The position numbers and the translations under genes were made by a program. Positions 3,196-11,799 of a stretch of 15,220 nt of DNA are shown piece by piece. The notes under the pieces are model-generated. The model saw only the letters and a program-made list of their open reading frames with translations. It did not search any database and was not told the DNA's origin. Positions within the stretch are counted from its first letter, which is position 1. Every line of letters begins with the position of its first letter. This DNA comes from Candidatus Rokuibacteriota bacterium (lineage in GTDB: Bacteria; Methylomirabilota; Methylomirabilia; Rokubacteriales; CSP1-6), in assembly GCA_016184305.1 (NCBI GenBank), contig JACPCX010000140.1, forward strand, positions 1 to 15,220, written 5' to 3'.

Positions 3196-4307
3196 CCGCA
3201 GATGCGCCGGATGTCGGCCCAGTCGTAACCGTCGAGGAGCTTCCGTGATGACGCCGGCACCGGCGCGCGGGCGAGCCGCGTGAGCCGGGCGACCCGCTCC
3301 TCCGGGGCCGGGTGGGTCGAGAGGTACTTGAGCAGCGGCCCCGCCTCGCCGCGCCGCTTCTCCATCCCCTCGAAGAACGCGATCATGCCCGCGGGATCGA
3401 TGTGGGCCGCGAGCAGAAGTCGCATGCCCTCGGCGTCGGCCTCCTCCTCCGCGGCGCGGCTGTAGCGTAGCGTGCCCAGCACGCGGGCGCTCTCGAGCCC
3501 GTAGGCCATGACGCCGCTCACGTCCCCGGTGAGAGCCGTGAAGAGAAGCCCGGTGGACACGTGCTGGACCAGCGCCTTCGTGGCGTGGCGCTGCAGCACA
3601 TGCTGGATCTCGTGGGCCAGCACCCCCGCCAGTTCCTCGGGCGTGCGCGTGCGCTCCAGGAGACCCCGGAAGACCACGATGAAGCCGCCGGGCGCCGCCA
3701 GGGCGTTGACCGTCGGATCGTCCACCACGGTGATGCGGAACGTGTAGGGTGTCCGGGGAAGCGGCGCGATCACGACCTTGACCATGTCGTCGATGATTCG
3801 CTGGCGCGTCGGCTCCGCGCACGCCTTCCCCGCCGGCACCAGATGCTCCACGATCGAACGGCCGAAGCGCTCCTCCCAGGAGACGGGCACGCGCGCAGCC
3901 GCCACGGCCGCCGCGGCAGGGATGCCCCAGAGATAGAGCCCCGCCGCGATGGCGACCACCGCGAGGGCCGCAAGAACCGTGAGCGCCACGCGCCTGCGGC
4001 GACGGCCGGGATCGTGGAAGCGCGACGCGACCTCCGGGGAGATCCCGTGAAGACTCGCCAGGAAGTCGGCATCCGCCACCAGCAGGGCCTCGGGCAAGTC
4101 CCCGCCTCGCTCGAGCCGCACCTGCTCTCCTGCGTAGGAGCCCTGGGTCTGACGGACCTCGCCGTAAGGCCACCAGAGCGTCGCGCCGCTCTCGGTGCTC
4201 ACCTCGAGCCCCCCGCGCATCAGCCGGATCTGCGCCCGCTGGCGCGCGGGCGTCCGCCCGTCGAGGTACACGCCCTCCCAGTCGCTCCTGACGCTAGCCG
4301 AGGTCAA
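3192..4307 (-). CDS. M48 family zinc metallopeptidase with N-terminal domain and single TM helix (YjgN partner)
   Basis: VNALAAPGG, EELAGVLAHEIQH (HExxH), YSRAAEEEAD, YLSTHP; TM segment VALTVLAALAVVAIAAGLYLWG. The TTG start is uncertain; the stop overlaps the fprA stop (CTAG 3192-3195). Confidence 0.9.
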   Translation of the reverse strand: MTSASVRSDWEGVYLDGRTPARQRAQIRLMRGGLEVSTESGATLWWPYGEVRQTQGSYAGEQVRLERGGDLPEALLVADADFLASLHGISPEVASRFHDPGRRRRRVALTVLAALAVVAIAAGLYLWGIPAAAAVAAARVPVSWEERFGRSIVEHLVPAGKACAEPTRQRIIDDMVKVVIAPLPRTPYTFRITVVDDPTVNALAAPGGFIVVFRGLLERTRTPEELAGVLAHEIQHVLQRHATKALVQHVSTGLLFTALTGDVSGVMAYGLESARVLGTLRYSRAAEEEADAEGMRLLLAAHIDPAGMIAFFEGMEKRRGEAGPLLKYLSTHPAPEERVARLTRLARAPVPASSRKLLDGYDWADIRRICG

Positions 4308-5241
4308 AACCGCCCCCCACGTCCAGCAGGCCGGCGAGCCCCTCTCCCGTCGCCGAGGCTGCCCGCGCGTCCTGCTGGATGGCGTCCAGATCCAGCGGCC
4401 CCTCGAGCGTCAGGTAGCGGAAGGCGAACCGGACGCTGCGCACCCTGGCCCAGGGCCAGGCGAGCCCCAGCGTCAGAACAAGCAAGAGGAGATTGCCTGC
4501 CATCAACCGGAGGAGCGGCCAGCCCGTCACCGTGGAGCGGAAGCGCGCCGCGCCGAAACAGGTATGCCCCCAGAAGTAGCGCCGCTTCCGCGCCAGGTAC
4601 CAGAACCAGATGAGCCCCAGCGTGAAGGGTGTCAGCAGGAGCGTCAGGAGGAAAGGCCCGAACAGGGCCCGGCCGGCACCGTCGAAATCGAAGCGCCGGG
4701 TGCCGAACCAGGAGTTGGCAGTCATGAACGCGTGGCGCTGGGCGTCGAAGAATGGGTAGTAGAGACCAAACGTGAAGGAGCTCGCCACCGATCCCACGAC
4801 GAAGATCTTCACGAAGTCCCGCGCCCGGCCGCGGAACGAAAAGCGGATCCCCCGCCACGAGGAGCGGCTCAGCCGGTAGCGGCGGGCCCCCACCGTCGCC
4901 AGCGGGATGAAGACCACGAGCAGGAGGTACACCAGCAGGCCCGCCAGCACCTTGAGCCCGATCCAGACATCGAGGACGTCGCGCACGACCGTGAGCACGA
5001 TGACTGGAACGACGAAGAAGAGCATGGCCTTGAGGAAGCCGATCAGGAGCTCCCGCCCGGTCCCGTGATAGGCGAAGCGGTCGCCCTCGATCTCCGACTG
5101 GCTCAGCACGTACTTCCGGACACGCACCTTCGCCCAGAAGTAATAGACGCCCAGCGTCACCAGCGTGAACAGGACGTTGACGATGTAGATGCCGAACAGC
5201 GAGCCACCGCTGCCGTGGAAGAAGAGCCGACGTCGCGGCAC
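4294..5241 (-). CDS. YjgN/DUF898 family inner membrane protein
   Basis: FHGSGGSLFGIYIVNVLFTLVTLGVYYFWAKVRVRKY, RFAYHGTGRELLIGFL, SRSSWRGIRFSFRG, LTLGLAWPWA. Confidence 0.92.
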   Translation of the reverse strand: MPRRRLFFHGSGGSLFGIYIVNVLFTLVTLGVYYFWAKVRVRKYVLSQSEIEGDRFAYHGTGRELLIGFLKAMLFFVVPVIVLTVVRDVLDVWIGLKVLAGLLVYLLLVVFIPLATVGARRYRLSRSSWRGIRFSFRGRARDFVKIFVVGSVASSFTFGLYYPFFDAQRHAFMTANSWFGTRRFDFDGAGRALFGPFLLTLLLTPFTLGLIWFWYLARKRRYFWGHTCFGAARFRSTVTGWPLLRLMAGNLLLLVLTLGLAWPWARVRSVRFAFRYLTLEGPLDLDAIQQDARAASATGEGLAGLLDVGGGFDLG

Positions 5242-5251
5242 CGCGCCGGTG

Positions 5252-5929
5252 TCAAGCAGGGCCCAGCCTCCTCTCCAGATGACGGGCGTAGCGCGACATG
5301 GAGTAGGTGCACACCCAGTAGATGACGGCGATGAAGAGGTACAGCTCGAAGGGGCGGATCTCGCGGTTGTTGACCACCTGGGCGGCCTTCGTGAGGTCCA
5401 TGAAGCCGATGATGGAGGCCAATGATGTGTCCTTGAAGAGGACGATGAACTGGGTGACGAGCGACGGGATCATGTTCTTCAGCGCCTGGGGGAGGACGAC
5501 ATGCCGCATGGTCTGCGCGCCCGTGAGTCCCACGGCCGTCGCCGCCTCCACCTGCCCGCGGGGCACCGACTGGATCCCGGCCCGCACGATCTCCCCGAGA
5601 TAGGCGGCCTCGAAGATGACGAAGGCCGCCAGGGCCACCCCGAACTCCGGGATGGCCGTCTGCAGCACGATGGGCATGATGAACCACATCCAGAAGATCA
5701 CCATGACCAGCGGCACGCCCCGGAAGAACTCCACGTAGAGGGTGGCGGGGAGGCGGATCCAGGCCTGCGGGGCGAGCCGGCCGAGGCCGATGAAGATGCC
5801 GAGGAGAAAGCCCAGGACGATGGCGGGGATGGCCAGCCGCAGCGTCCCGCCCACGAAGTTGCCGAATCCGAGGAACCCCTGGATCAGCAGGAACGGCAGG
5901 TTGCGCCAGACGACCCCGAAGTCCAGCAT
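5252..5929 (-). CDS. Polar amino acid ABC transporter permease (GltK/HisM-like)
   Basis: YVEFFRGVPL, EAAYLGEIVRAGIQSVPRGQVEAA, LFKDTSLASIIG. Start is ATG 5929 (MLDF) or ATG 5935. Confidence 0.95.
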   Translation of the reverse strand: MLDFGVVWRNLPFLLIQGFLGFGNFVGGTLRLAIPAIVLGFLLGIFIGLGRLAPQAWIRLPATLYVEFFRGVPLVMVIFWMWFIMPIVLQTAIPEFGVALAAFVIFEAAYLGEIVRAGIQSVPRGQVEAATAVGLTGAQTMRHVVLPQALKNMIPSLVTQFIVLFKDTSLASIIGFMDLTKAAQVVNNREIRPFELYLFIAVIYWVCTYSMSRYARHLERRLGPA

Positions 5930-6000
5930 TACCATGGCGCCGGCACCCGGACTGTCGTCCGCCCGCGCCCTGCGACTCGCTCCGCTCGTCCCCTCCCCAT
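5929..6000 (-). other. Repeat-encoded mini-ORF MGRGRAERVAGRGRTTVRVPAPW* (23 aa), overlapping both neighbours
   Basis: ATG 6000-5998 overlaps the previous TGA (TGATG); TAA 5931-5929 overlaps the permease ATG 5929-5927 (TAATG). Translation is not shown. Confidence 0.4.
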
Positions 6001-6034
6001 CACGCGGGCACCCGGACTGTCGTCCGCCCGCGCC
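5942..6034. repeat. Two identical 28-bp REP-like hairpin repeats (5942-5969, 6007-6034) separated by 37 bp
   Basis: GGCACCCGGACTGTCGTCCGCCCGCGCC occurs twice, with internal stem CGGAC-TGTC-GTCCG (5948-5961, 6013-6026) and an outer GCGGGC/GCCCGC stem in copy 2. Confidence 0.9.
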
Positions 6035-6062
6035 GAGCGCCCGGCCTCCGCGCGAGACTCAT
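6000..6062 (-). other. Repeat-encoded mini-ORF MSLARRPGARRGRTTVRVPA* (20 aa), overlapping both neighbours
   Basis: ATG 6062-6060 overlaps the permease TGA 6061-6059 (ATGA), with SD GGGGAG 6 nt upstream; TGA 6002-6000 overlaps the next ATG. Translation is not shown. Confidence 0.45.
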
Positions 6063-6784
6063 CGGCGCTCCCCACGGCCGCCGGTGATGAGCCCTGGAAT
6101 GGCCGTCCGCCGCTCCACCCACGCCATGATGGAGGCGATCGACACGCACAGGACGAGGTAGATGAGCGTGCCCGCTGTCAGCGCCTCGATGGCCTTGGCC
6201 GTGTAGGTCTCGATCTGGCGCGTCTGGAACGTCAGCTCCGCCACGCTGATCGTGAGCGCCACCGAGGAGTTCTTGAGCAGGTTCAGCGACTCGCTGGTGG
6301 CCGGGGGAATGATGAGCCGGAGCGCGATGGGCAGGATCACGTGGCGATAGGCCTGGGTCACGGTGAGGCCGGAGGCCACCGAGGCCTCGAGCAGCGTCCT
6401 CGGGATGGACTGGATGCCGGACCGGAGGACCTCGGAGAAGCGCGCGCCGCTGTAGACTCCCAGCGCGCAGACCGCCGCCCAGAACTCGAGGCTGTGGGCG
6501 AAGACCCAGTCCTGGAGGGCGCTCGGCAGGAGCGGTGGCACCCCGAAGTACCAGAAGAACATCCAGACGAGGAGCGGGACGTTCCGGAAGAACTCGACGT
6601 AGACCGTCGCCACCGCGCGCAGGGGCTTCCAGGGCGCCGTCCGGAAGGCGCCCGCGACGATGCCGAGCACCACGGCCATCAGCCAGGCCAGCACCGACAG
6701 CTCGAGGGTGAGGATCAGACCGCTGAGCAGCCATTGCCCCGACTGCCCGGTCCACAGCACCGACCAGTTGAACTGATACGTCAC
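6059..6784 (-). CDS. Polar amino acid ABC transporter permease (GltJ/HisQ-like)
   Basis: MTYQFNWSVLW, YVEFFRNVPLLVWMFFWYFG, SEVLRSGIQSIPR, LNLLKNSSVALTISVAELTFQTRQI. Confidence 0.95.
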   Translation of the reverse strand: MTYQFNWSVLWTGQSGQWLLSGLILTLELSVLAWLMAVVLGIVAGAFRTAPWKPLRAVATVYVEFFRNVPLLVWMFFWYFGVPPLLPSALQDWVFAHSLEFWAAVCALGVYSGARFSEVLRSGIQSIPRTLLEASVASGLTVTQAYRHVILPIALRLIIPPATSESLNLLKNSSVALTISVAELTFQTRQIETYTAKAIEALTAGTLIYLVLCVSIASIMAWVERRTAIPGLITGGRGERR

Positions 6785-6809
6785 GGGGACGCCCGCTCCC
6801 GGCGAGGCA

Positions 6810-8036
6810 TCAGCCGAGCACCGCGGCGAGCGGCACCGCGAAGAGGCGCGGGCCGAGCGCGGTGGCGGACGTGCCGCCGTAGGCCAGGATGGCGGCCCGG
6901 CAGCGCGGTGTCCGATCGAGGAAGGCGCGGAGCCCGGCGGTGTCGCGCTCGTCCCAGCGGCTCGACGCCTTCACCTCGACCGCCAGGCTCTCGCGCGCCG
7001 TCTCGATGACGAAGTCCACCTCGTGGCGCCCCTGCACGTGCCAGTAGGCGAGCCGCGCCTCCGGCCACCGCGCCTCGATGGTGGCGCGGATGTTCTGCGC
7101 GGCGTAGGTCTCCACCAGAGCGCCCCGGAGGGCCGAGTCGTCCAGGCGCTCCCGCACCGAGAGCCCACAGAGATGCGCCGCCAGCCCCGAGTCGCTCACG
7201 TAGAGCTTGGGCGACTTGATCAGCCGGCTTGCGCGGTTGCCCAGGAACGGCTCCAGCCGGTGGAACACGAAGGACGTCTCCATGAGCCCCAGGTGGCGCC
7301 CCGCCGTCGCGCTGCCGAGCTTCGCGTCACGCGCCAGCTCCGAGAGCTTGAGGACCTGGGCCGTCCGGAGCGCGGCCAGGCGCAGGAGCTGGCGGAAGGA
7401 CACGAGATCGGCGACAGGGGCGAGCTCGCGCACGTCCCGCTCCAGGTACGTCTGCTCGTACCCCCTGAACCAGAGATCGGCATCTCGCGCCCGATCCAGG
7501 CACACGGCCGGCATGCCCCCGCGGAGGACGTCCGCGTCGCCGAGCGGCGAGAACGTCTGCCCTCGGGGCAGGCGCTGCGTCTCGAAGAAGCGCTTCAGGA
7601 ACGGCTCCGCGCGCAGCTCCCCCGCGGCCTCGCGCGGGGTGAACGGCCAGAGCGTCAGGTACACTGCCCTCCCGGCCAGGCTCTCGGTGATGCTCCGGAG
7701 CAGCGCGAAGTTCGCCGAGCCGGACAGCAGGAAGCGCCCCGGACGGCGATCGCGGTCCACTTCCAGCTTGATCGCCGTCAACAGCTCCGGGCATTTCTGC
7801 GCCTCGTCGATCGTCAGGGGCGGCCCACCGCGCACGAAGGCCGCCGGGTCCCGCCGGGCAGCCTCGAGCTGCGCGAACTCGTCGAGGCTCAGGTAGAGGC
7901 GCCCGCCGAGCCCGGGCTCGTGCTGCAGGAAGGTGCTCTTGCCGGCCTGCCGGAGGCCGGTGACCACCACCACCGGCATCTCCGCCAGCGCCGCGCGTAC
8001 GGCCGCTCCCAGCTCGCGCCGACGGTAGCCTGTCAC
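6810..8036 (-). CDS. AAA+ ATPase, AAA_14 + DUF4143 (COG1373-like), with C-terminal PD-(D/E)xK-like motif
   Basis: Walker A GLRQAGKST, Walker B LTIDEAQK, FLLSGSA, ESLAGR, RGGMP, YLERDVREL, KSPKLYVSDSGL, HEVDFVIE...AVEVKAS. Confidence 0.93.
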   Translation of the reverse strand: MTGYRRRELGAAVRAALAEMPVVVVTGLRQAGKSTFLQHEPGLGGRLYLSLDEFAQLEAARRDPAAFVRGGPPLTIDEAQKCPELLTAIKLEVDRDRRPGRFLLSGSANFALLRSITESLAGRAVYLTLWPFTPREAAGELRAEPFLKRFFETQRLPRGQTFSPLGDADVLRGGMPAVCLDRARDADLWFRGYEQTYLERDVRELAPVADLVSFRQLLRLAALRTAQVLKLSELARDAKLGSATAGRHLGLMETSFVFHRLEPFLGNRASRLIKSPKLYVSDSGLAAHLCGLSVRERLDDSALRGALVETYAAQNIRATIEARWPEARLAYWHVQGRHEVDFVIETARESLAVEVKASSRWDERDTAGLRAFLDRTPRCRAAILAYGGTSATALGPRLFAVPLAAVLG

Positions 8037-8046
8037 GATACTTCAG

Positions 8047-8075
8047 ATCATAGCGTCAAAATGACACTACAACAA
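8047..8075 (-). promoter_or_regulatory. Sigma70-type promoter of the AAA ATPase gene with operator-like palindrome in the spacer
   Basis: TTGTTG (8075-8070), 17 bp, TATGAT (8052-8047); GTCA-AAA-TGAC palindrome at 8055-8065; AT-rich island in a very GC-rich background. Confidence 0.65.
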
Positions 8076-8116
8076 GTCTCACCATGACAGCCCTCGCCGG
8101 CGGGACGTCGCGGCGT

Positions 8117-8974
8117 CTACTTGGGCACCACCTGGTAGAGCATGAAGGAGCGGACCGCCGCGCTCATCGGATACGGCAGCTCGCCCCTGGGCCCGAACCA
8201 CTTGTCGTAGAGCTCGAAGAACTTGCCCGACTCGATGCCCTCGAAGAGGCTGTTGTTGACGGCGGCCCGGAAGTCGGCATCGCCCTTCCGCATGGCCATG
8301 CCATACGGCTCGTAGGAGTAGAAGTCGCCGACGATCTCCCAGTCGGCCGGGTTCTGCGCCTTGACCTTGAGTCCGGCCAGCTGGATGCCGTCGTTCGTGA
8401 AGGCGTCCACCTGCCCCTGCACGAGTGCCTGGAAGGCCGCCGGCTGGTCGGGGAACTCGCGGAGCTGGCCCGTCGGCACGCGCTCGCGCATGATCCTCGC
8501 GTTCGTGGAGCCCTGCTGGGCGGCGATGCGCTTGCCGCCGATGTCGCCGATGCCCTTGATGGGGCTCCCCTTCTTGACGAGGAACTGGGCGCCCGTCACG
8601 AAGAACGTGATGGAGAAATCCACGCTGTCCCGCCGCGTCCGCGTGTCCGTCATGGTGCCCGCGATGAGGTCCACGGCGTTGGAGGAGAGCAGCGGGATGC
8701 GGGTCGGCGGGGTCGACTCCTTCTTCACGAGCTTCACGGGCTTGCCGAGCTTCTTCGAGATGGACGGGACGATGAGCTGGTCCACCAGGTCGATGGAGAA
8801 CCCGACCCACTCATTCCTGCTGTTGACGTACGCGAAGGGCGGCGAACCCGTGCGGGTGCCGATGGTCAGCTCCCCGGTGCGGCTGATCTTCTCGAGCGTG
8901 GTCTCCGCCAGGGCGGGCACCACACCTGCCGCCACGATGGCGACGGCGAGCAGCAGGCCGAGCATCCTCTTCAT
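8117..8974 (-). CDS. Polar amino acid ABC transporter substrate-binding protein (GltI-like, SBP family 3)
   Basis: Signal peptide (MKR...ALA-ET), TLEKISRTGELTIGTR, PPFAY, VGFSIDL, TRIPLL, EPYGMAMRKGD, LYDKWF; SD AGGAGGAG at 8987-8980. Confidence 0.95.
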   Translation of the reverse strand: MKRMLGLLLAVAIVAAGVVPALAETTLEKISRTGELTIGTRTGSPPFAYVNSRNEWVGFSIDLVDQLIVPSISKKLGKPVKLVKKESTPPTRIPLLSSNAVDLIAGTMTDTRTRRDSVDFSITFFVTGAQFLVKKGSPIKGIGDIGGKRIAAQQGSTNARIMRERVPTGQLREFPDQPAAFQALVQGQVDAFTNDGIQLAGLKVKAQNPADWEIVGDFYSYEPYGMAMRKGDADFRAAVNNSLFEGIESGKFFELYDKWFGPRGELPYPMSAAVRSFMLYQVVPK

Positions 8975-8989
8975 GGTGTCTCCTCCTCG

Positions 8990-9727
8990 TTAGTGGGACA
9001 GGATCTTGGACAAGAAGTCCTTCGCGCGGTCGGACATGGGCGCGGCGAAGAACGCCGCCGGCGGCTGCACCTCGACCACCTGGCCGCCATCCATGAACAC
9101 CACCCGGTGCGCGACGCGCCGGGCGAAGCCCATCTCATGGCTGACCACCATCATGGTCATGCCTTCCCGCGCCAGATCGGTCATGACCTCCAGCACCTCG
9201 TTGATCATCTCGGGGTCGAGCGCCGAGGTGGGCTCGTCGAAGAGCATGATGCGCGGCTGCATGGCCAGGGCCCGGGCGATGGCCACCCGCTGCTGCTGGC
9301 CGCCGGAGAGGTTCGCCGGGTAGTGGTCGGCCTTGTCCGGGATGCGCACGCGCTCCAGCAGATCACGCGCGATCTTCTCCGCCCCCGCGCCCGGGAGCCC
9401 CTTCACCTTCAGCGGGGCCAGCATGACGTTCTCGAGCGCCGTCATGTGGGGGAAGAGGTTGAAGGACTGGAACACCATCCCCACCTCCGCCCGCAGCCGG
9501 GACAGGTGGACCCGCGGGCCCGTGATGGACTGTCCATGAACGACGATCTCCCCCTTCTGGATTACCTCGAGCCGGTTCACGCACCGGATGAGGGTGCTCT
9601 TCCCCGAGCCCGACGGTCCGCACACGACCACGACCTCCCCCGCCTCCACCGTCAGATCGACGTCCTGGAGGACATGCAGGGGCCCGAACCACTTGTTGAC
9701 GCCCCTGAACTCGATGGCCGCTGCCAC
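8990..9727 (-). CDS. Polar amino acid ABC transporter ATP-binding protein (GlnQ/GltL-like)
   Basis: GPSGSGKST, VFQSFNLFPH, LSGGQQQRVAIARALAM, MLFDEPTSALDPE, VVSHEMGFAR. Confidence 0.97.
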   Translation of the reverse strand: MAAAIEFRGVNKWFGPLHVLQDVDLTVEAGEVVVVCGPSGSGKSTLIRCVNRLEVIQKGEIVVHGQSITGPRVHLSRLRAEVGMVFQSFNLFPHMTALENVMLAPLKVKGLPGAGAEKIARDLLERVRIPDKADHYPANLSGGQQQRVAIARALAMQPRIMLFDEPTSALDPEMINEVLEVMTDLAREGMTMMVVSHEMGFARRVAHRVVFMDGGQVVEVQPPAAFFAAPMSDRAKDFLSKILSH

Positions 9728-9731
9728 GCCG

Positions 9732-10229
9732 CTACTCGATCACCACGAGGACGTCGCCCGGGTTCACCGCCTGCCCCACCTGCACCCGGATCTCGCGCAC
9801 CGTCCCCCGCCCGGTGGCGTCGAACTCGTTCTCCATCTTCATGGCCTCGAGGATGATCAGACCATCCCCGGGCTGGACCTCCTGCCCGACCTCCACCTGG
9901 ATGGCCGTGACCCGCCCGGGCATCGGGGCCTTGAGCACCTGGCCGCCGTGGACGGTGGCGCCGCCGCGGGTGCGAATGATGTAGCGCGTCTCCTCCTCCA
10001 CCCGGATGCGGTACGTCTCGCCGTCCACCTGGACCACGAAGACGCCGTCCTCCTCGCTCACGTCGGCCACCAGCGACTCGCCCCCGATCAGGAGCGACCA
10101 GATGCCCTCCGCCGCGCGCCGCGCGTCCACCTCCAGCATCCGGCCCTCGACAGTAACCTGGAATCGGCCGTCCTGTCCTGTCACATCCACGGGGACGGTC
10201 GCGCTGTCGAGCTGCGCCTCGAACTTCAC
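9732..10229 (-). CDS. Biotin carboxyl carrier protein (biotinyl domain with BT-like N-terminal region)
   Basis: LKAPMPGRV...ILEAMKMENE (biotin Lys). GTG 10229 (MKFEAQ) is preferred over 10238 because SD GGAGGG (10243-10238) lies 8 nt upstream. Confidence 0.92.
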   Translation of the reverse strand: MKFEAQLDSATVPVDVTGQDGRFQVTVEGRMLEVDARRAAEGIWSLLIGGESLVADVSEEDGVFVVQVDGETYRIRVEEETRYIIRTRGGATVHGGQVLKAPMPGRVTAIQVEVGQEVQPGDGLIILEAMKMENEFDATGRGTVREIRVQVGQAVNPGDVLVVIE

Positions 10230-10297
10230 CGGGCGCACCCTCCCTCTCCGTTCGAGGGAGAAGGCCGGGGTGAGGGTGGCGGCGGCAGCGGAATCAC
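10226..10297 (-). other. Mini-ORF MIPLPPPPSPRPSPSNGEGGCAR* (23 aa) bridging accC and the biotin carrier gene
   Basis: GTG 10297-10295 overlaps the accC TGA (GTGA); its TGA 10228-10226 overlaps the carrier GTG 10229-10227 (GTGA); GGAG lies 6 nt upstream of its GTG. Confidence 0.4.
10236..10278 (-). repeat. REP-like element of the CCCTCACCCC..CCCTCTCCC-N-GGGAGAGGG type
   Basis: Minus strand reads CACCCTCACCCCGGCCTTCTCCCTCGAACGGAGAGGGAGGGTG; inner stem CCTTCTCC/GGAGAGGG, outer stem CACCCT/AGGGTG. Confidence 0.8.
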
Positions 10298-11799
10298 CGC
10301 GGTCTCCGGCTCGGACGCCCGGCCTGCGTCCAGGGGCTCAGGCCCGCCGGGGGAGGCAGCGGCGCCCGCTTCCCCGCCTGCTCGTAGGCGGTCAGCGCGG
10401 CGGCGACCAGGGCCACGGTGCGGCGCCGGCCCGCCGCCTCGGCGCGATCCACCGACATCAGCCGCTCCATGAACGCGGTGGACAGGCGCCCGGCCAGGAA
10501 GTCGGGGTGGCGCATGATGTGCTGGAGCACGGGGATCGTCGTCCGGACGCCGGCCACATGGTACTCGCCCAGCGCCCGCGCCATCCTGGCGATGGCGGCA
10601 TCGCGATCCGCTCCCCAGACGATGAGCTTCGCCATGAGCGTATCGTAGAAGCGCGGGATGATGCAGCCCGCGTAGACGCCCGAGTCGTCGCGCACCCACG
10701 GCCCACCGGGGATGCGGAGGCTCGTGATCCGCCCAGGCGCCGGCATGAAGTTGGCGTAGGGGTCTTCCGCGTTGATGCGGCACTCGATGGCCCAGCCGCT
10801 CCAGGTCACGTCGTCCTGGGCGAAGCCGAGCTTCTCGCCGGCCGCGATCCGGAGCTGCTCCTTCACGAGATCGCGCCCGGTGACGAATTCGGTCACGGGG
10901 TGCTCCACCTGCAACCGCGTGTTCATCTCGAGAAAGTAGAAGTTCCGATCGCGGTCCACGAGGAACTCCACCGTGCCCGCGTTCACGTACGCGACGGCCG
11001 CCGCCAGGCGGCAGGCGGCCTCGCCCATCCGGCGGCGCATCTCGGGCGTCACGAAGGGTGACGGGCTCTCCTCGATGAGCTTCTGGTGACGCCGCTGGAT
11101 GGAGCACTCGCGCTCGCCGAGGTGGACCACATTCCCGTGGCTGTCGGCCAGGATCTGGATCTCGATGTGGCGCGGCTCCTCGACGAAGCGCTCGATGTAC
11201 ACGGAGGCGTCGCCGAAGGCCGAGGCTGCTTCCGAGCGCGCGCCCCGGAGCGCCGCGGCCAGCTCGGCGGGGGTGCGCACGAGCCGCATGCCCTTGCCGC
11301 CCCCGCCCATGGCCGCCTTGATCATCACCGGGTACCCGATCTCACCCGCCACGCGCGCGGCCTCGGCGTCGTCGGTGACGGGGCTCTCGGTGCCCGGCAC
11401 CACCGGGACCTTCATCCGTAGGGCGGTGCGGCGCGCCGCCATCTTGTCCCCCATGGCGCGCATGGCCGCGGCCGGCGGCCCGATGAAGGCGAGCCCCGCC
11501 CCGGCGCAGGCCTCGGCGAAGGCCGCGTTCTCGGCGAGGAAGCCGTAGCCCGGATGCACGGCCTCGGCCCCCGTGGCCCGCGCCGCCGCGAGGATCTTCT
11601 CGATGGCGAGGTAGCTGTCGGCCGGGGCCGGCGGTCCGAGGAAGACTGCCTCGTCGGCCATCATGACGTGAAGCGACTCCCGGTCGGCCTCGGAGTACAC
11701 GGCAACCGTGGCGATCCCCAGCTCGCGGCAGGCTCGGATGACGCGGACGGCGATCTCGCCCCGATTGGCGACCAGCAGCTTCCCGAAGGGCGGGCTCAC
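10294..11799 (-). CDS. accC: Biotin carboxylase subunit of an acetyl/propionyl/methylcrotonyl-CoA carboxylase
   Basis: KLLVANRGEIAVRVIRAC, HPGYGFLAEN, GGGGKGMR, GERECSIQRRHQK, EMNTRLQVEHPVTE, ECRINAEDP. Confidence 0.97.
   Translation of the reverse strand: MSPPFGKLLVANRGEIAVRVIRACRELGIATVAVYSEADRESLHVMMADEAVFLGPPAPADSYLAIEKILAAARATGAEAVHPGYGFLAENAAFAEACAGAGLAFIGPPAAAMRAMGDKMAARRTALRMKVPVVPGTESPVTDDAEAARVAGEIGYPVMIKAAMGGGGKGMRLVRTPAELAAALRGARSEAASAFGDASVYIERFVEEPRHIEIQILADSHGNVVHLGERECSIQRRHQKLIEESPSPFVTPEMRRRMGEAACRLAAAVAYVNAGTVEFLVDRDRNFYFLEMNTRLQVEHPVTEFVTGRDLVKEQLRIAAGEKLGFAQDDVTWSGWAIECRINAEDPYANFMPAPGRITSLRIPGGPWVRDDSGVYAGCIIPRFYDTLMAKLIVWGADRDAAIARMARALGEYHVAGVRTTIPVLQHIMRHPDFLAGRLSTAFMERLMSVDRAEAAGRRRTVALVAAALTAYEQAGKRAPLPPPAGLSPWTQAGRPSRRPR

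Follow-up and report, generated by a model that had tools for sequence, protein, structure and literature searches.

Stop/start-overlapping micro-ORFs bridge insertions in a biotin carboxylase–ABC transporter gene run of a Rokubacteria genome, where such tiled gaps are in excess

The stretch analyzed here, 15,220 nucleotides of a Candidatus Rokuibacteriota bacterium, an uncultured inhabitant of soil/groundwater (hereafter the window; contig C86 of a 3.2-Mb assembly of 239 contigs and 70.2% GC, genome G000), carries on its minus strand a run of genes encoding biotin carboxylase (BC), a biotin carrier (BT-BCCP, or BCCP), an ABC transporter ATPase, a solute-binding protein (SBP), a DUF4143 ATPase and two permeases (perm1 and perm2). 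Three junctions of this run hold inserted sequence, and each of the three gaps is fully covered by one or two micro open reading frames (micro-ORFs) that overlap the stop codon of the upstream gene and the start codon of the downstream gene. Gaps tiled in this manner are about twice as frequent in the genome as in randomized controls. We consider it somewhat probable that the micro-ORFs relay ribosomes across insertions into the operon, on the principle of MIRUs, the interspersed repetitive units of mycobacteria. The order of the genes from BC through perm2 is syntenic across the family, by which the run appears to be an old operon. This conservation bears out the view of a preliminary description of the window, in which the inserted sequences were taken for insertions into an older gene run.

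The same description had listed four micro-ORFs in three gaps with seven stop/start overlaps, all of which were verified in the sequence. Micro-ORF 1 (10226..10297, minus strand as all features below; GTG 10297 to TGA 10226) has 23 codons (VIPLPPPPSPRPSPSNGEGGCAR) and spans the gap between BC and BT-BCCP. It shares GTGA with the stop of BC (TGA 10296-10294) and a second GTGA with the start of BT-BCCP. This second overlap depends on the start of BT-BCCP being GTG 10229, to which it was corrected, as the residues MKFE are kept in relatives, from the GTG 10238 given by the ORF lister. Micro-ORF 2 (6781..6810; ATG 6810 to TGA 6781) has 9 codons (MPRRERASP) and joins the DUF4143 gene, through TGATG at its stop, to perm1, through GTGA at its start. 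Between perm1 and perm2 two micro-ORFs are chained. Micro-ORF 3 (6000..6062; ATG 6062 to TGA 6000; 20 codons, MSLARRPGARRGRTTVRVPA) overlaps the perm1 stop by ATGA, and micro-ORF 4 (5929..6003; GTG 6003 or ATG 6000 to TAA 5929; 23–24 codons) overlaps micro-ORF 3 by TGATG and the perm2 start at 5929 by TAATG. That start was preferred for an MLD N-terminus common to relatives; another in-frame ATG, at 5935, lies inside the repeat. The composition of the four micro-ORFs is non-coding-like, with codon log-likelihood ratios of −0.15 to −0.42 per codon and a G+C content at third codon positions (GC3) of 0.70–0.89, micro-ORF 1 showing −0.42 and 0.70.

The three gaps are occupied by inserts of different sequence, as had been stated: a hairpin repeat, the 25-nt junction of a DUF4143 gene insertion, and a two-copy hairpin resembling the repetitive extragenic palindromes (REPs). 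Four relatives, designated G001, G002, G003 (of the same genus as G000) and L023, are referred to below. The gap between BC and BCCP (10230-10293) contains a hairpin with arms CCCTCTCCC and GGGAGAGGG in the layout CCCTCACCCCGG-CCCTCTCCC...GGGAGAGGG, lying at 10238..10276 (CCCTCACCCCGG-CCTTCTCCC-loop-GGAGAGGGAGGG). Related copies were found at three other intergenic regions by blastn and at about ten loci by motif, and G002 and G003, whose gap is 16 nt, lack the hairpin. Its 3′ arm includes GGAGG, a candidate Shine-Dalgarno sequence (SD) 9 nt upstream of the BCCP start. The second gap (6785-6809) arose as a junction when the whole DUF4143 gene was inserted. This gene occurs between SBP and perm1 in G000, G001, G002 and L023 only and is absent from G003 and the other genera examined. 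The third gap, between perm1 and perm2 (5930-6058), is occupied by two copies of the REP-like hairpin (family A; 5932-5974 and 5997-6039, span 5932..6039) at a spacing of 65 nt.

Family A amounts to 52 copies in 34 arrays of the genome. It was recovered through a motif-seeded alignment, since nhmmer seeded with the single 65-nt unit of the window matched only that unit. Compensatory changes are seen in its outer stem, with six fully complementary variants, and all five outer pairs hold in 23 of 34 parsed copies; the two copies of the window themselves differ by a compensated pair (CGGAC/GTCCG versus CGGGC/GCCCG). Relative to flanking genes, 15 arrays share their orientation and 4 are opposite, and the family shows no ATGA rule of the kind described below for another repeat. 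A scan of the whole window with Rfam gave no matches at E ≤ 1.

Orthologous junctions in relatives keep the stop/start layout through independent inserts. The BC–BCCP junction is a direct overlap by 4 nt (NTGA) in 23 of 30 assessable loci, and tiling is seen in four of its five gaps of 15 nt or longer. Within the genus both the 16-nt gap of G002 and G003 and the 64-nt gap of G000 and G001 are tiled; they differ by 48 nt. A split or frameshifted BC-BCCP gene at gap 10230-10293 was rejected, because a separate BT-BCCP is present in 30 of 31 relatives and the junction is of the 4-nt type in the 23 loci just mentioned. At perm1–perm2, about 60 of 78 assessable loci (one of the 60, L067, being a mis-assignment) have a junction of less than 15 nt, with an overlap of 4 nt in 15 and of 1 nt in 7 of those listed. 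Where the REP-like array is present it is tiled at one copy (L023, one ORF), at two copies (G000 and G001, two ORFs) and at four copies (G003, one ORF of 68 codons). The 25-nt bridge between DUF4143 and perm1 is unchanged in L023 as to length, start and frame, although 5 of its 25 positions are substituted. In G001, the closest relative, a unit of a further repeat, family B, is inserted between the ATPase and SBP genes, which are 15 nt apart in G000, and the enlarged gap is tiled by two ORFs ending on the SBP start. The micro-ORF peptides vary freely between G000, G001, G003 and L023.

Two other forms of the perm1–perm2 junction were observed. At locus L017 (G006:C44, 4891-5159) it contains an insert of 265 nt with long terminal inverted repeats, like those of miniature inverted-repeat transposable elements, and is untiled. 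At locus L019 (G016:C6, 4869-5884) a 337-codon ORF, alpha/beta hydrolase-like by eye, lies between the permease genes with ATGA overlaps at both ends, so that the junction accepts a coupled gene.

The frequency of such gaps was assessed over the whole genome. Genes were predicted with a simple caller of our own, combining codon log-likelihood with terms for the ribosome-binding site and the start codon, which gave 3046 genes at a coding density of 87.6%. A co-directional gap of 15–200 nt was scored as tiled when fully covered by ORFs whose starts share bases with the preceding stop and whose stops share bases with the next start. In G000, 68 of 888 gaps (7.7%) were tiled. Four null models gave lower numbers: 47.9 ± 4.1 when gaps were dinucleotide-shuffled in place, 37.9 ± 4.4 when gaps were permuted among gene pairs, 35.4 ± 4.7 when flanks were permuted, and 31.2 ± 4.1 when a 1-nt indel was placed in the gap; in each of them 0 of 200 replicates reached 68. 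The observed frequency is thus unlike that of the permutation nulls, with which the preliminary description had proposed to compare it, and amounts to a roughly twofold excess (68/888 versus 31–48). The splits it had also proposed gave an excess on either side: 16 of 117 repeat-containing gaps were tiled versus 6–7 under the nulls, and 52 of 771 repeat-free gaps versus 25–36. The excess likewise held when gaps were divided by the ribosome-binding site (strong, 42/423 tiled; weak, 26/465), in all three gap-size classes, and when the most-upstream starts were used instead (53/694 versus 29.6 and 20.5 in the nulls). Extension within the phylum, to 50 high-GC loci of other Rokubacteria, yielded 16 tiled gaps out of 211 versus 8.1 ± 2.4 and 2.4 ± 1.2; these loci are syntenic, and their gaps are therefore not independent.

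Tiling was most regular in gaps with ATGA at both ends. Of these, tiling was seen in 13 of 16 without repeats and in 10 of 12 with repeats, with a chance of about 1/3 that the frame fits (binomial, 1e-4; 1.5e-7 for the 23 of 28 pooled), and most ORFs in them have a non-coding composition. Bridges started by ATGA were completed in 29 of 82 cases versus 30 of 162 for those started by GTGA (Fisher p = 0.0045). An A precedes the TGA stop in 82 of 538 gaps, A being the third codon base in only 2.8% of codons, and gap lengths favor the tile-compatible class (346:281:261 for lengths of 1, 0 and 2 modulo 3). Part of the excess comes from a few tiled ORFs that, with GC3 near 0.9, look like genuine small genes or pieces of genes. 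One of them, a coding-like tiled ORF of 66 codons at C168:62695 (strand coordinate) with a C-terminus thiolase-like by eye, probably represents part of a gene that was split or frameshifted rather than a linker. Among other tiled gaps, a tandem repeat of 14 nt (GTGAGGACCCCGAA, in about 5 units) was noted at C120:55276-55345, in a 63-nt gap tiled by five ORFs of 4–5 codons joined by GTGA, and a third repeat (GGCGAGGTGCAGCCGAAGGCGAGCCGAGCGGA...) lies in tiled co-directional gaps at C182:13423 and C168:15641 (strand coordinates).

One repeat family of G000, family B, has ATGA at both ends of its unit and is a strong contributor to the excess. It comprises 63 copies in 33 arrays, none within the window of G000 (for example C215:70316-70501, C197:7876-7936, C3:3699-3759 and C85:12377-12437; 29 further arrays). 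The unit of about 62–69 nt starts with CCCGATGA, continues with a covarying hairpin, of which there are many stem variants, and GAAGAGGCC...TTCAGGCG..., and often ends in ATGA. Arrays share the orientation of the flanking genes in 24 cases and are opposite in 2 (p = 1e-5). Ten of 24 arrays are tiled, versus 2.3 under the 1-nt indel null, and one array consists of three successive ORFs of 21 codons. The first ATGA is the stop of the upstream gene in 8 of 24 arrays, and in 11 of 24 the downstream start lies at most 10 nt from the last unit. High numbers of matches to the core motif were limited to this genus (61 and 97) and two other genera (17, 9, 7 and 6); the remainder of 81 sampled genomes of the phylum stood at control level. 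A hammerhead-like reading of the unit (CCCGATGA-hairpin-GAAG), made by eye, was dropped because the core positions do not fit. The assembly contains a single gene resembling Y1 (IS200/IS605-type) transposases (C13:34218-35072, 285 aa; PF01797 match at C13:34758-35081), to which no copy of family A or B is adjacent. As the assembly is 88.8% complete, a cognate gene for a REP-associated tyrosine transposase (RAYT) may be unassembled.

The gap between SBP and the DUF4143 gene (8037..8116) had been described as lacking a bridge and containing a fresh promoter. The absence of a bridge was confirmed; the promoter is weak, being recognizable by eye only. TTGTTG-17 nt-TATGAT matches at 8 of 12 positions, lies 13 nt upstream of the GTG of the DUF4143 gene and is kept in G001 and G002, and a scan for sigma-70 promoters found no site within 8037-8116 at threshold. 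The site is overlapped by a strong nested palindrome (CTGTCATGGTGA...TATCGTGACAG, with an inner GTAGTGTCA-TTT-TGACGCTAT), and the gap folds with z = −3.2, 0 of 200 shuffles folding as well. Palindrome and promoter-like site together look like an operator on a near-leaderless DUF4143 gene, an arrangement that G001 and G002 share. The gap that follows SBP is untiled in 8 of 8 genomes and has hairpins, in keeping with a site at which the genes are better left uncoupled.

Several results weigh against a relay function of the micro-ORFs. Only one of 15 co-directional family A arrays is tiled, that of the window itself, with 1.0 expected under the null, and the periods of this family show no bias modulo 3 (8:5:5). 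Among family B-like arrays of other genera, the strict overlap rule was followed in 1 of 14; in several of them, by eye, a stop lies 0–2 nt before the start. Across species, only 4 of 16 perm1–perm2 gaps of 15–300 nt are tiled, and the three tiled gaps of the window fold no better than shuffled sequences (z of −1.5, −0.3 and −0.25). The run of three tiled gaps is the sole such run in G000, and at least one run of this kind appeared in 32.5% of 1000 label shuffles (P = 0.33), so the clustering is not significant. At 70% GC, where 43% of codons end in G and stops are mainly TGA, a GTGA at the stop comes cheaply. The downstream overlaps (GTGA at BCCP, TAATG at perm2 and GTGA at perm1) are inherited from ancestral junctions or N-termini and not made by the inserts, TAATG at perm2 and GTGA at BCCP being found in relatives that have no insert; each bridge therefore involves fewer coincidences than seven overlaps imply. 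All genome-wide counts depend, moreover, on our own simple gene caller. The earlier proposal that this lineage tolerates, or selects for, insertions when hand-off is kept accordingly stands in part: it agrees with the genome-wide excess and with the tiling in relatives, and finds no backing in the clustering of this run or in family A.

These points lead to the alternative that chance and inheritance suffice, with frames open and RTGA common at 70% GC, overlaps left over from ancestral junctions, and micro-ORFs translated to no effect. Such a background is real, as the nulls alone tile 3.5–5.4% of gaps, and the insignificant clustering, the null-rate tiling of family A, the overlaps of insert-free relatives and the non-coding composition of the micro-ORFs are all what it would give. 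It does not account for an excess that no replicate of any null reached, for the tiling of 23 of 28 ATGA..ATGA gaps and of four in five BC–BCCP junctions opened to 15 nt or more, or for a REP-like array that stays tiled as its copy number changes; we regard it as rather unlikely. The idea that the micro-ORFs encode small functional peptides is very improbable. A few tiled ORFs elsewhere in the genome are coding-like (for example those of 60 and 66 codons, GC3 0.90–0.91), but the four of the window have the negative log-likelihood ratios given above, their sequences change freely among relatives, and two of the four are simply the translated repeat hairpin.

Tiling could also be a by-product of mobility, if the elements target or duplicate the ATGA of gene overlaps, so that a bridging ORF arises automatically and no selection acts on hand-off. 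The build of family B, with its CCCGATGA start and frequent ATGA end, and the position of its arrays at upstream stops (8/24) and close to downstream starts (11/24) are in keeping with this, as is the enrichment of A before the TGA stop in repeat-containing gaps (21/68 versus 2.8% third-base A); likewise, a 65-nt unit with a built-in stop/start overlap stays tiled when duplicated. Targeting leaves unexplained, however, the agreement of the unit lengths with the reading frame (3n+2, or 3n with read-through), and it explains neither the repeat-free excess nor the 25-nt bridge between DUF4143 and perm1; family A has no ATGA rule, and the sole Y1 transposase gene is flanked by neither family. Mobility as the whole explanation is, in our judgement, unlikely. 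The pattern can nonetheless be produced either by element design, that is, ATGA ends and a fitting unit length, or by survival of frame-compatible insertions.

Ribosome hand-off and translation of the micro-ORFs are what we infer from these arrangements. As we read them, stop and start overlapped directly at the ancestral junctions, as is usual where translation is coupled, and three of these junctions were opened in this genus, one by a small hairpin repeat, one by the DUF4143 gene as a whole and one by a REP-like array. A short non-coding-like ORF, or two chained ones, leads through each opened gap from the upstream stop to the downstream start. Under the relay model, a ribosome ending the upstream gene would re-initiate at the overlapping start, read the structured insert and melt its hairpin, which between BC and BCCP holds the SD; it would then terminate on the start of the next gene and re-initiate there. 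The insert would thereby cost the downstream gene little. This layout may owe its persistence both to how the elements are built and to survival of the insertions and copy-number variants that fit.

Repeats combining these properties are known from other bacteria. For MIRUs, the source cited by PMC12548453, a review of 2025, is Supply et al. 1997 (Mol Microbiol 26:991). Our literature search found nothing on such repeats in Rokubacteria. In the excerpts of PMC12548453 that concern them, MIRUs are mobile repeats that insert at start codons, with an internal ORF coupled to the gene by a 4-nt overlap and a minimal effect on expression. As far as those excerpts go, the likeness extends to short interspersed repeats between co-oriented genes, whose orientation they share; to the internal ORF coupled to a flanking gene by a 4-nt overlap, in some of the arrays here; to tandem units of variable copy number, the perm1–perm2 junction here holding 1, 2 or 4 copies; and to an insertion thought nearly neutral for downstream expression. 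A short unit (about 40–100 bp) at many intergenic sites is found in families A and B and in the BC–BCCP hairpin family, whereas start/stop overlap with flanking genes is seen in the array of the window and in family B (10/24) and in 1 of 15 family A arrays. The differences are the host phylum (Rokubacteria/Methylomirabilota), the sequences, which appear unrelated so that the likeness is one of architecture only, the presence of several families in G000 of which only family B is tile-prone as a family, and, in the window, two-ORF relays and a repeat-free bridge after insertion of a whole gene. By this analogy the architecture seems to be of a known kind, that of MIRUs, here in another phylum with several families and chained bridges.

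REPs and bacterial interspersed mosaic elements (BIMEs) of enterobacteria and pseudomonads also lie inside ABC-transporter operons, for example malEFG and hisJQMP, and classical REPs act as mRNA stabilizers or attenuators. The repeats described here share with them GC-rich imperfect palindromes, many extragenic copies, tandem arrangement in operons and compensatory stem changes. We know of no description of classical REPs with bridging ORFs, and no RAYT gene flanked by the present repeats was found in the assembly. A third parallel, presented in a section of PMC12548453, is offered by short upstream ORFs from which ribosomes are delivered through termination-reinitiation, and by synthetic bicistronic designs. 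The likeness lies in a short ORF whose sole task would be to pass the ribosome on over a stop/start overlap and to melt local structure; the ORFs described here differ, from what that section gives, in being coupled to the upstream gene as well and in their ability to chain, and so form a bridge and not a leader.

The genes of the run, all on the minus strand, were assigned from Pfam matches: BC (10294..11799; CPSase_L_D2, Biotin_carb_N and Biotin_carb_C), BT-BCCP (9732..10229; Biotin_lipoyl and PCC_BT, the GTG 10229 start being set by homology), the ABC transporter ATPase (8990..9727; ABC_tran), SBP (8117..8974; SBP_bac_3), the inserted AAA_14/DUF4143 ATPase gene (6810..8036), perm1 (6059..6784; BPD_transp_1) and perm2 (5252..5929, start ATG 5929; BPD_transp_1), followed by a gene for a DUF898 protein (4294..5241). 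BC and BT-BCCP (9732-11799) are two genes here and across the family; open frames of 618–881 aa contain the BCCP match in some relatives at the order level, which suggests fused forms.

If the relay is real, gene callers would systematically miss short ORFs that are functional and non-coding-like, and on which operon expression in these uncultured bacteria would depend. The MIRU solution, in which a mobile repeat brings along a coupled ORF, would then have arisen in bacteria other than mycobacteria and in several repeat families, and translational transparency would be a general constraint on the intergenic insertions that survive. For annotation, gaps of this sort need not be promoters or terminators, and the comparison of tiled gaps with frame-breaking nulls is a simple statistic applicable to any genome. 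A more far-reaching version, which we put forward tentatively and hold to be possible though doubtful, is that Rokubacteria have a genome-wide, selected layer of relay micro-ORFs, at some 30 or more junctions per 3 Mb beyond chance. The lengths and ends of repeat units (ATGA...ATGA, 3n+2) would in that case have evolved to be transparent to translation, operons would absorb repeats and even whole genes with coupling kept, and the rule might extend to high-GC bacteria generally.

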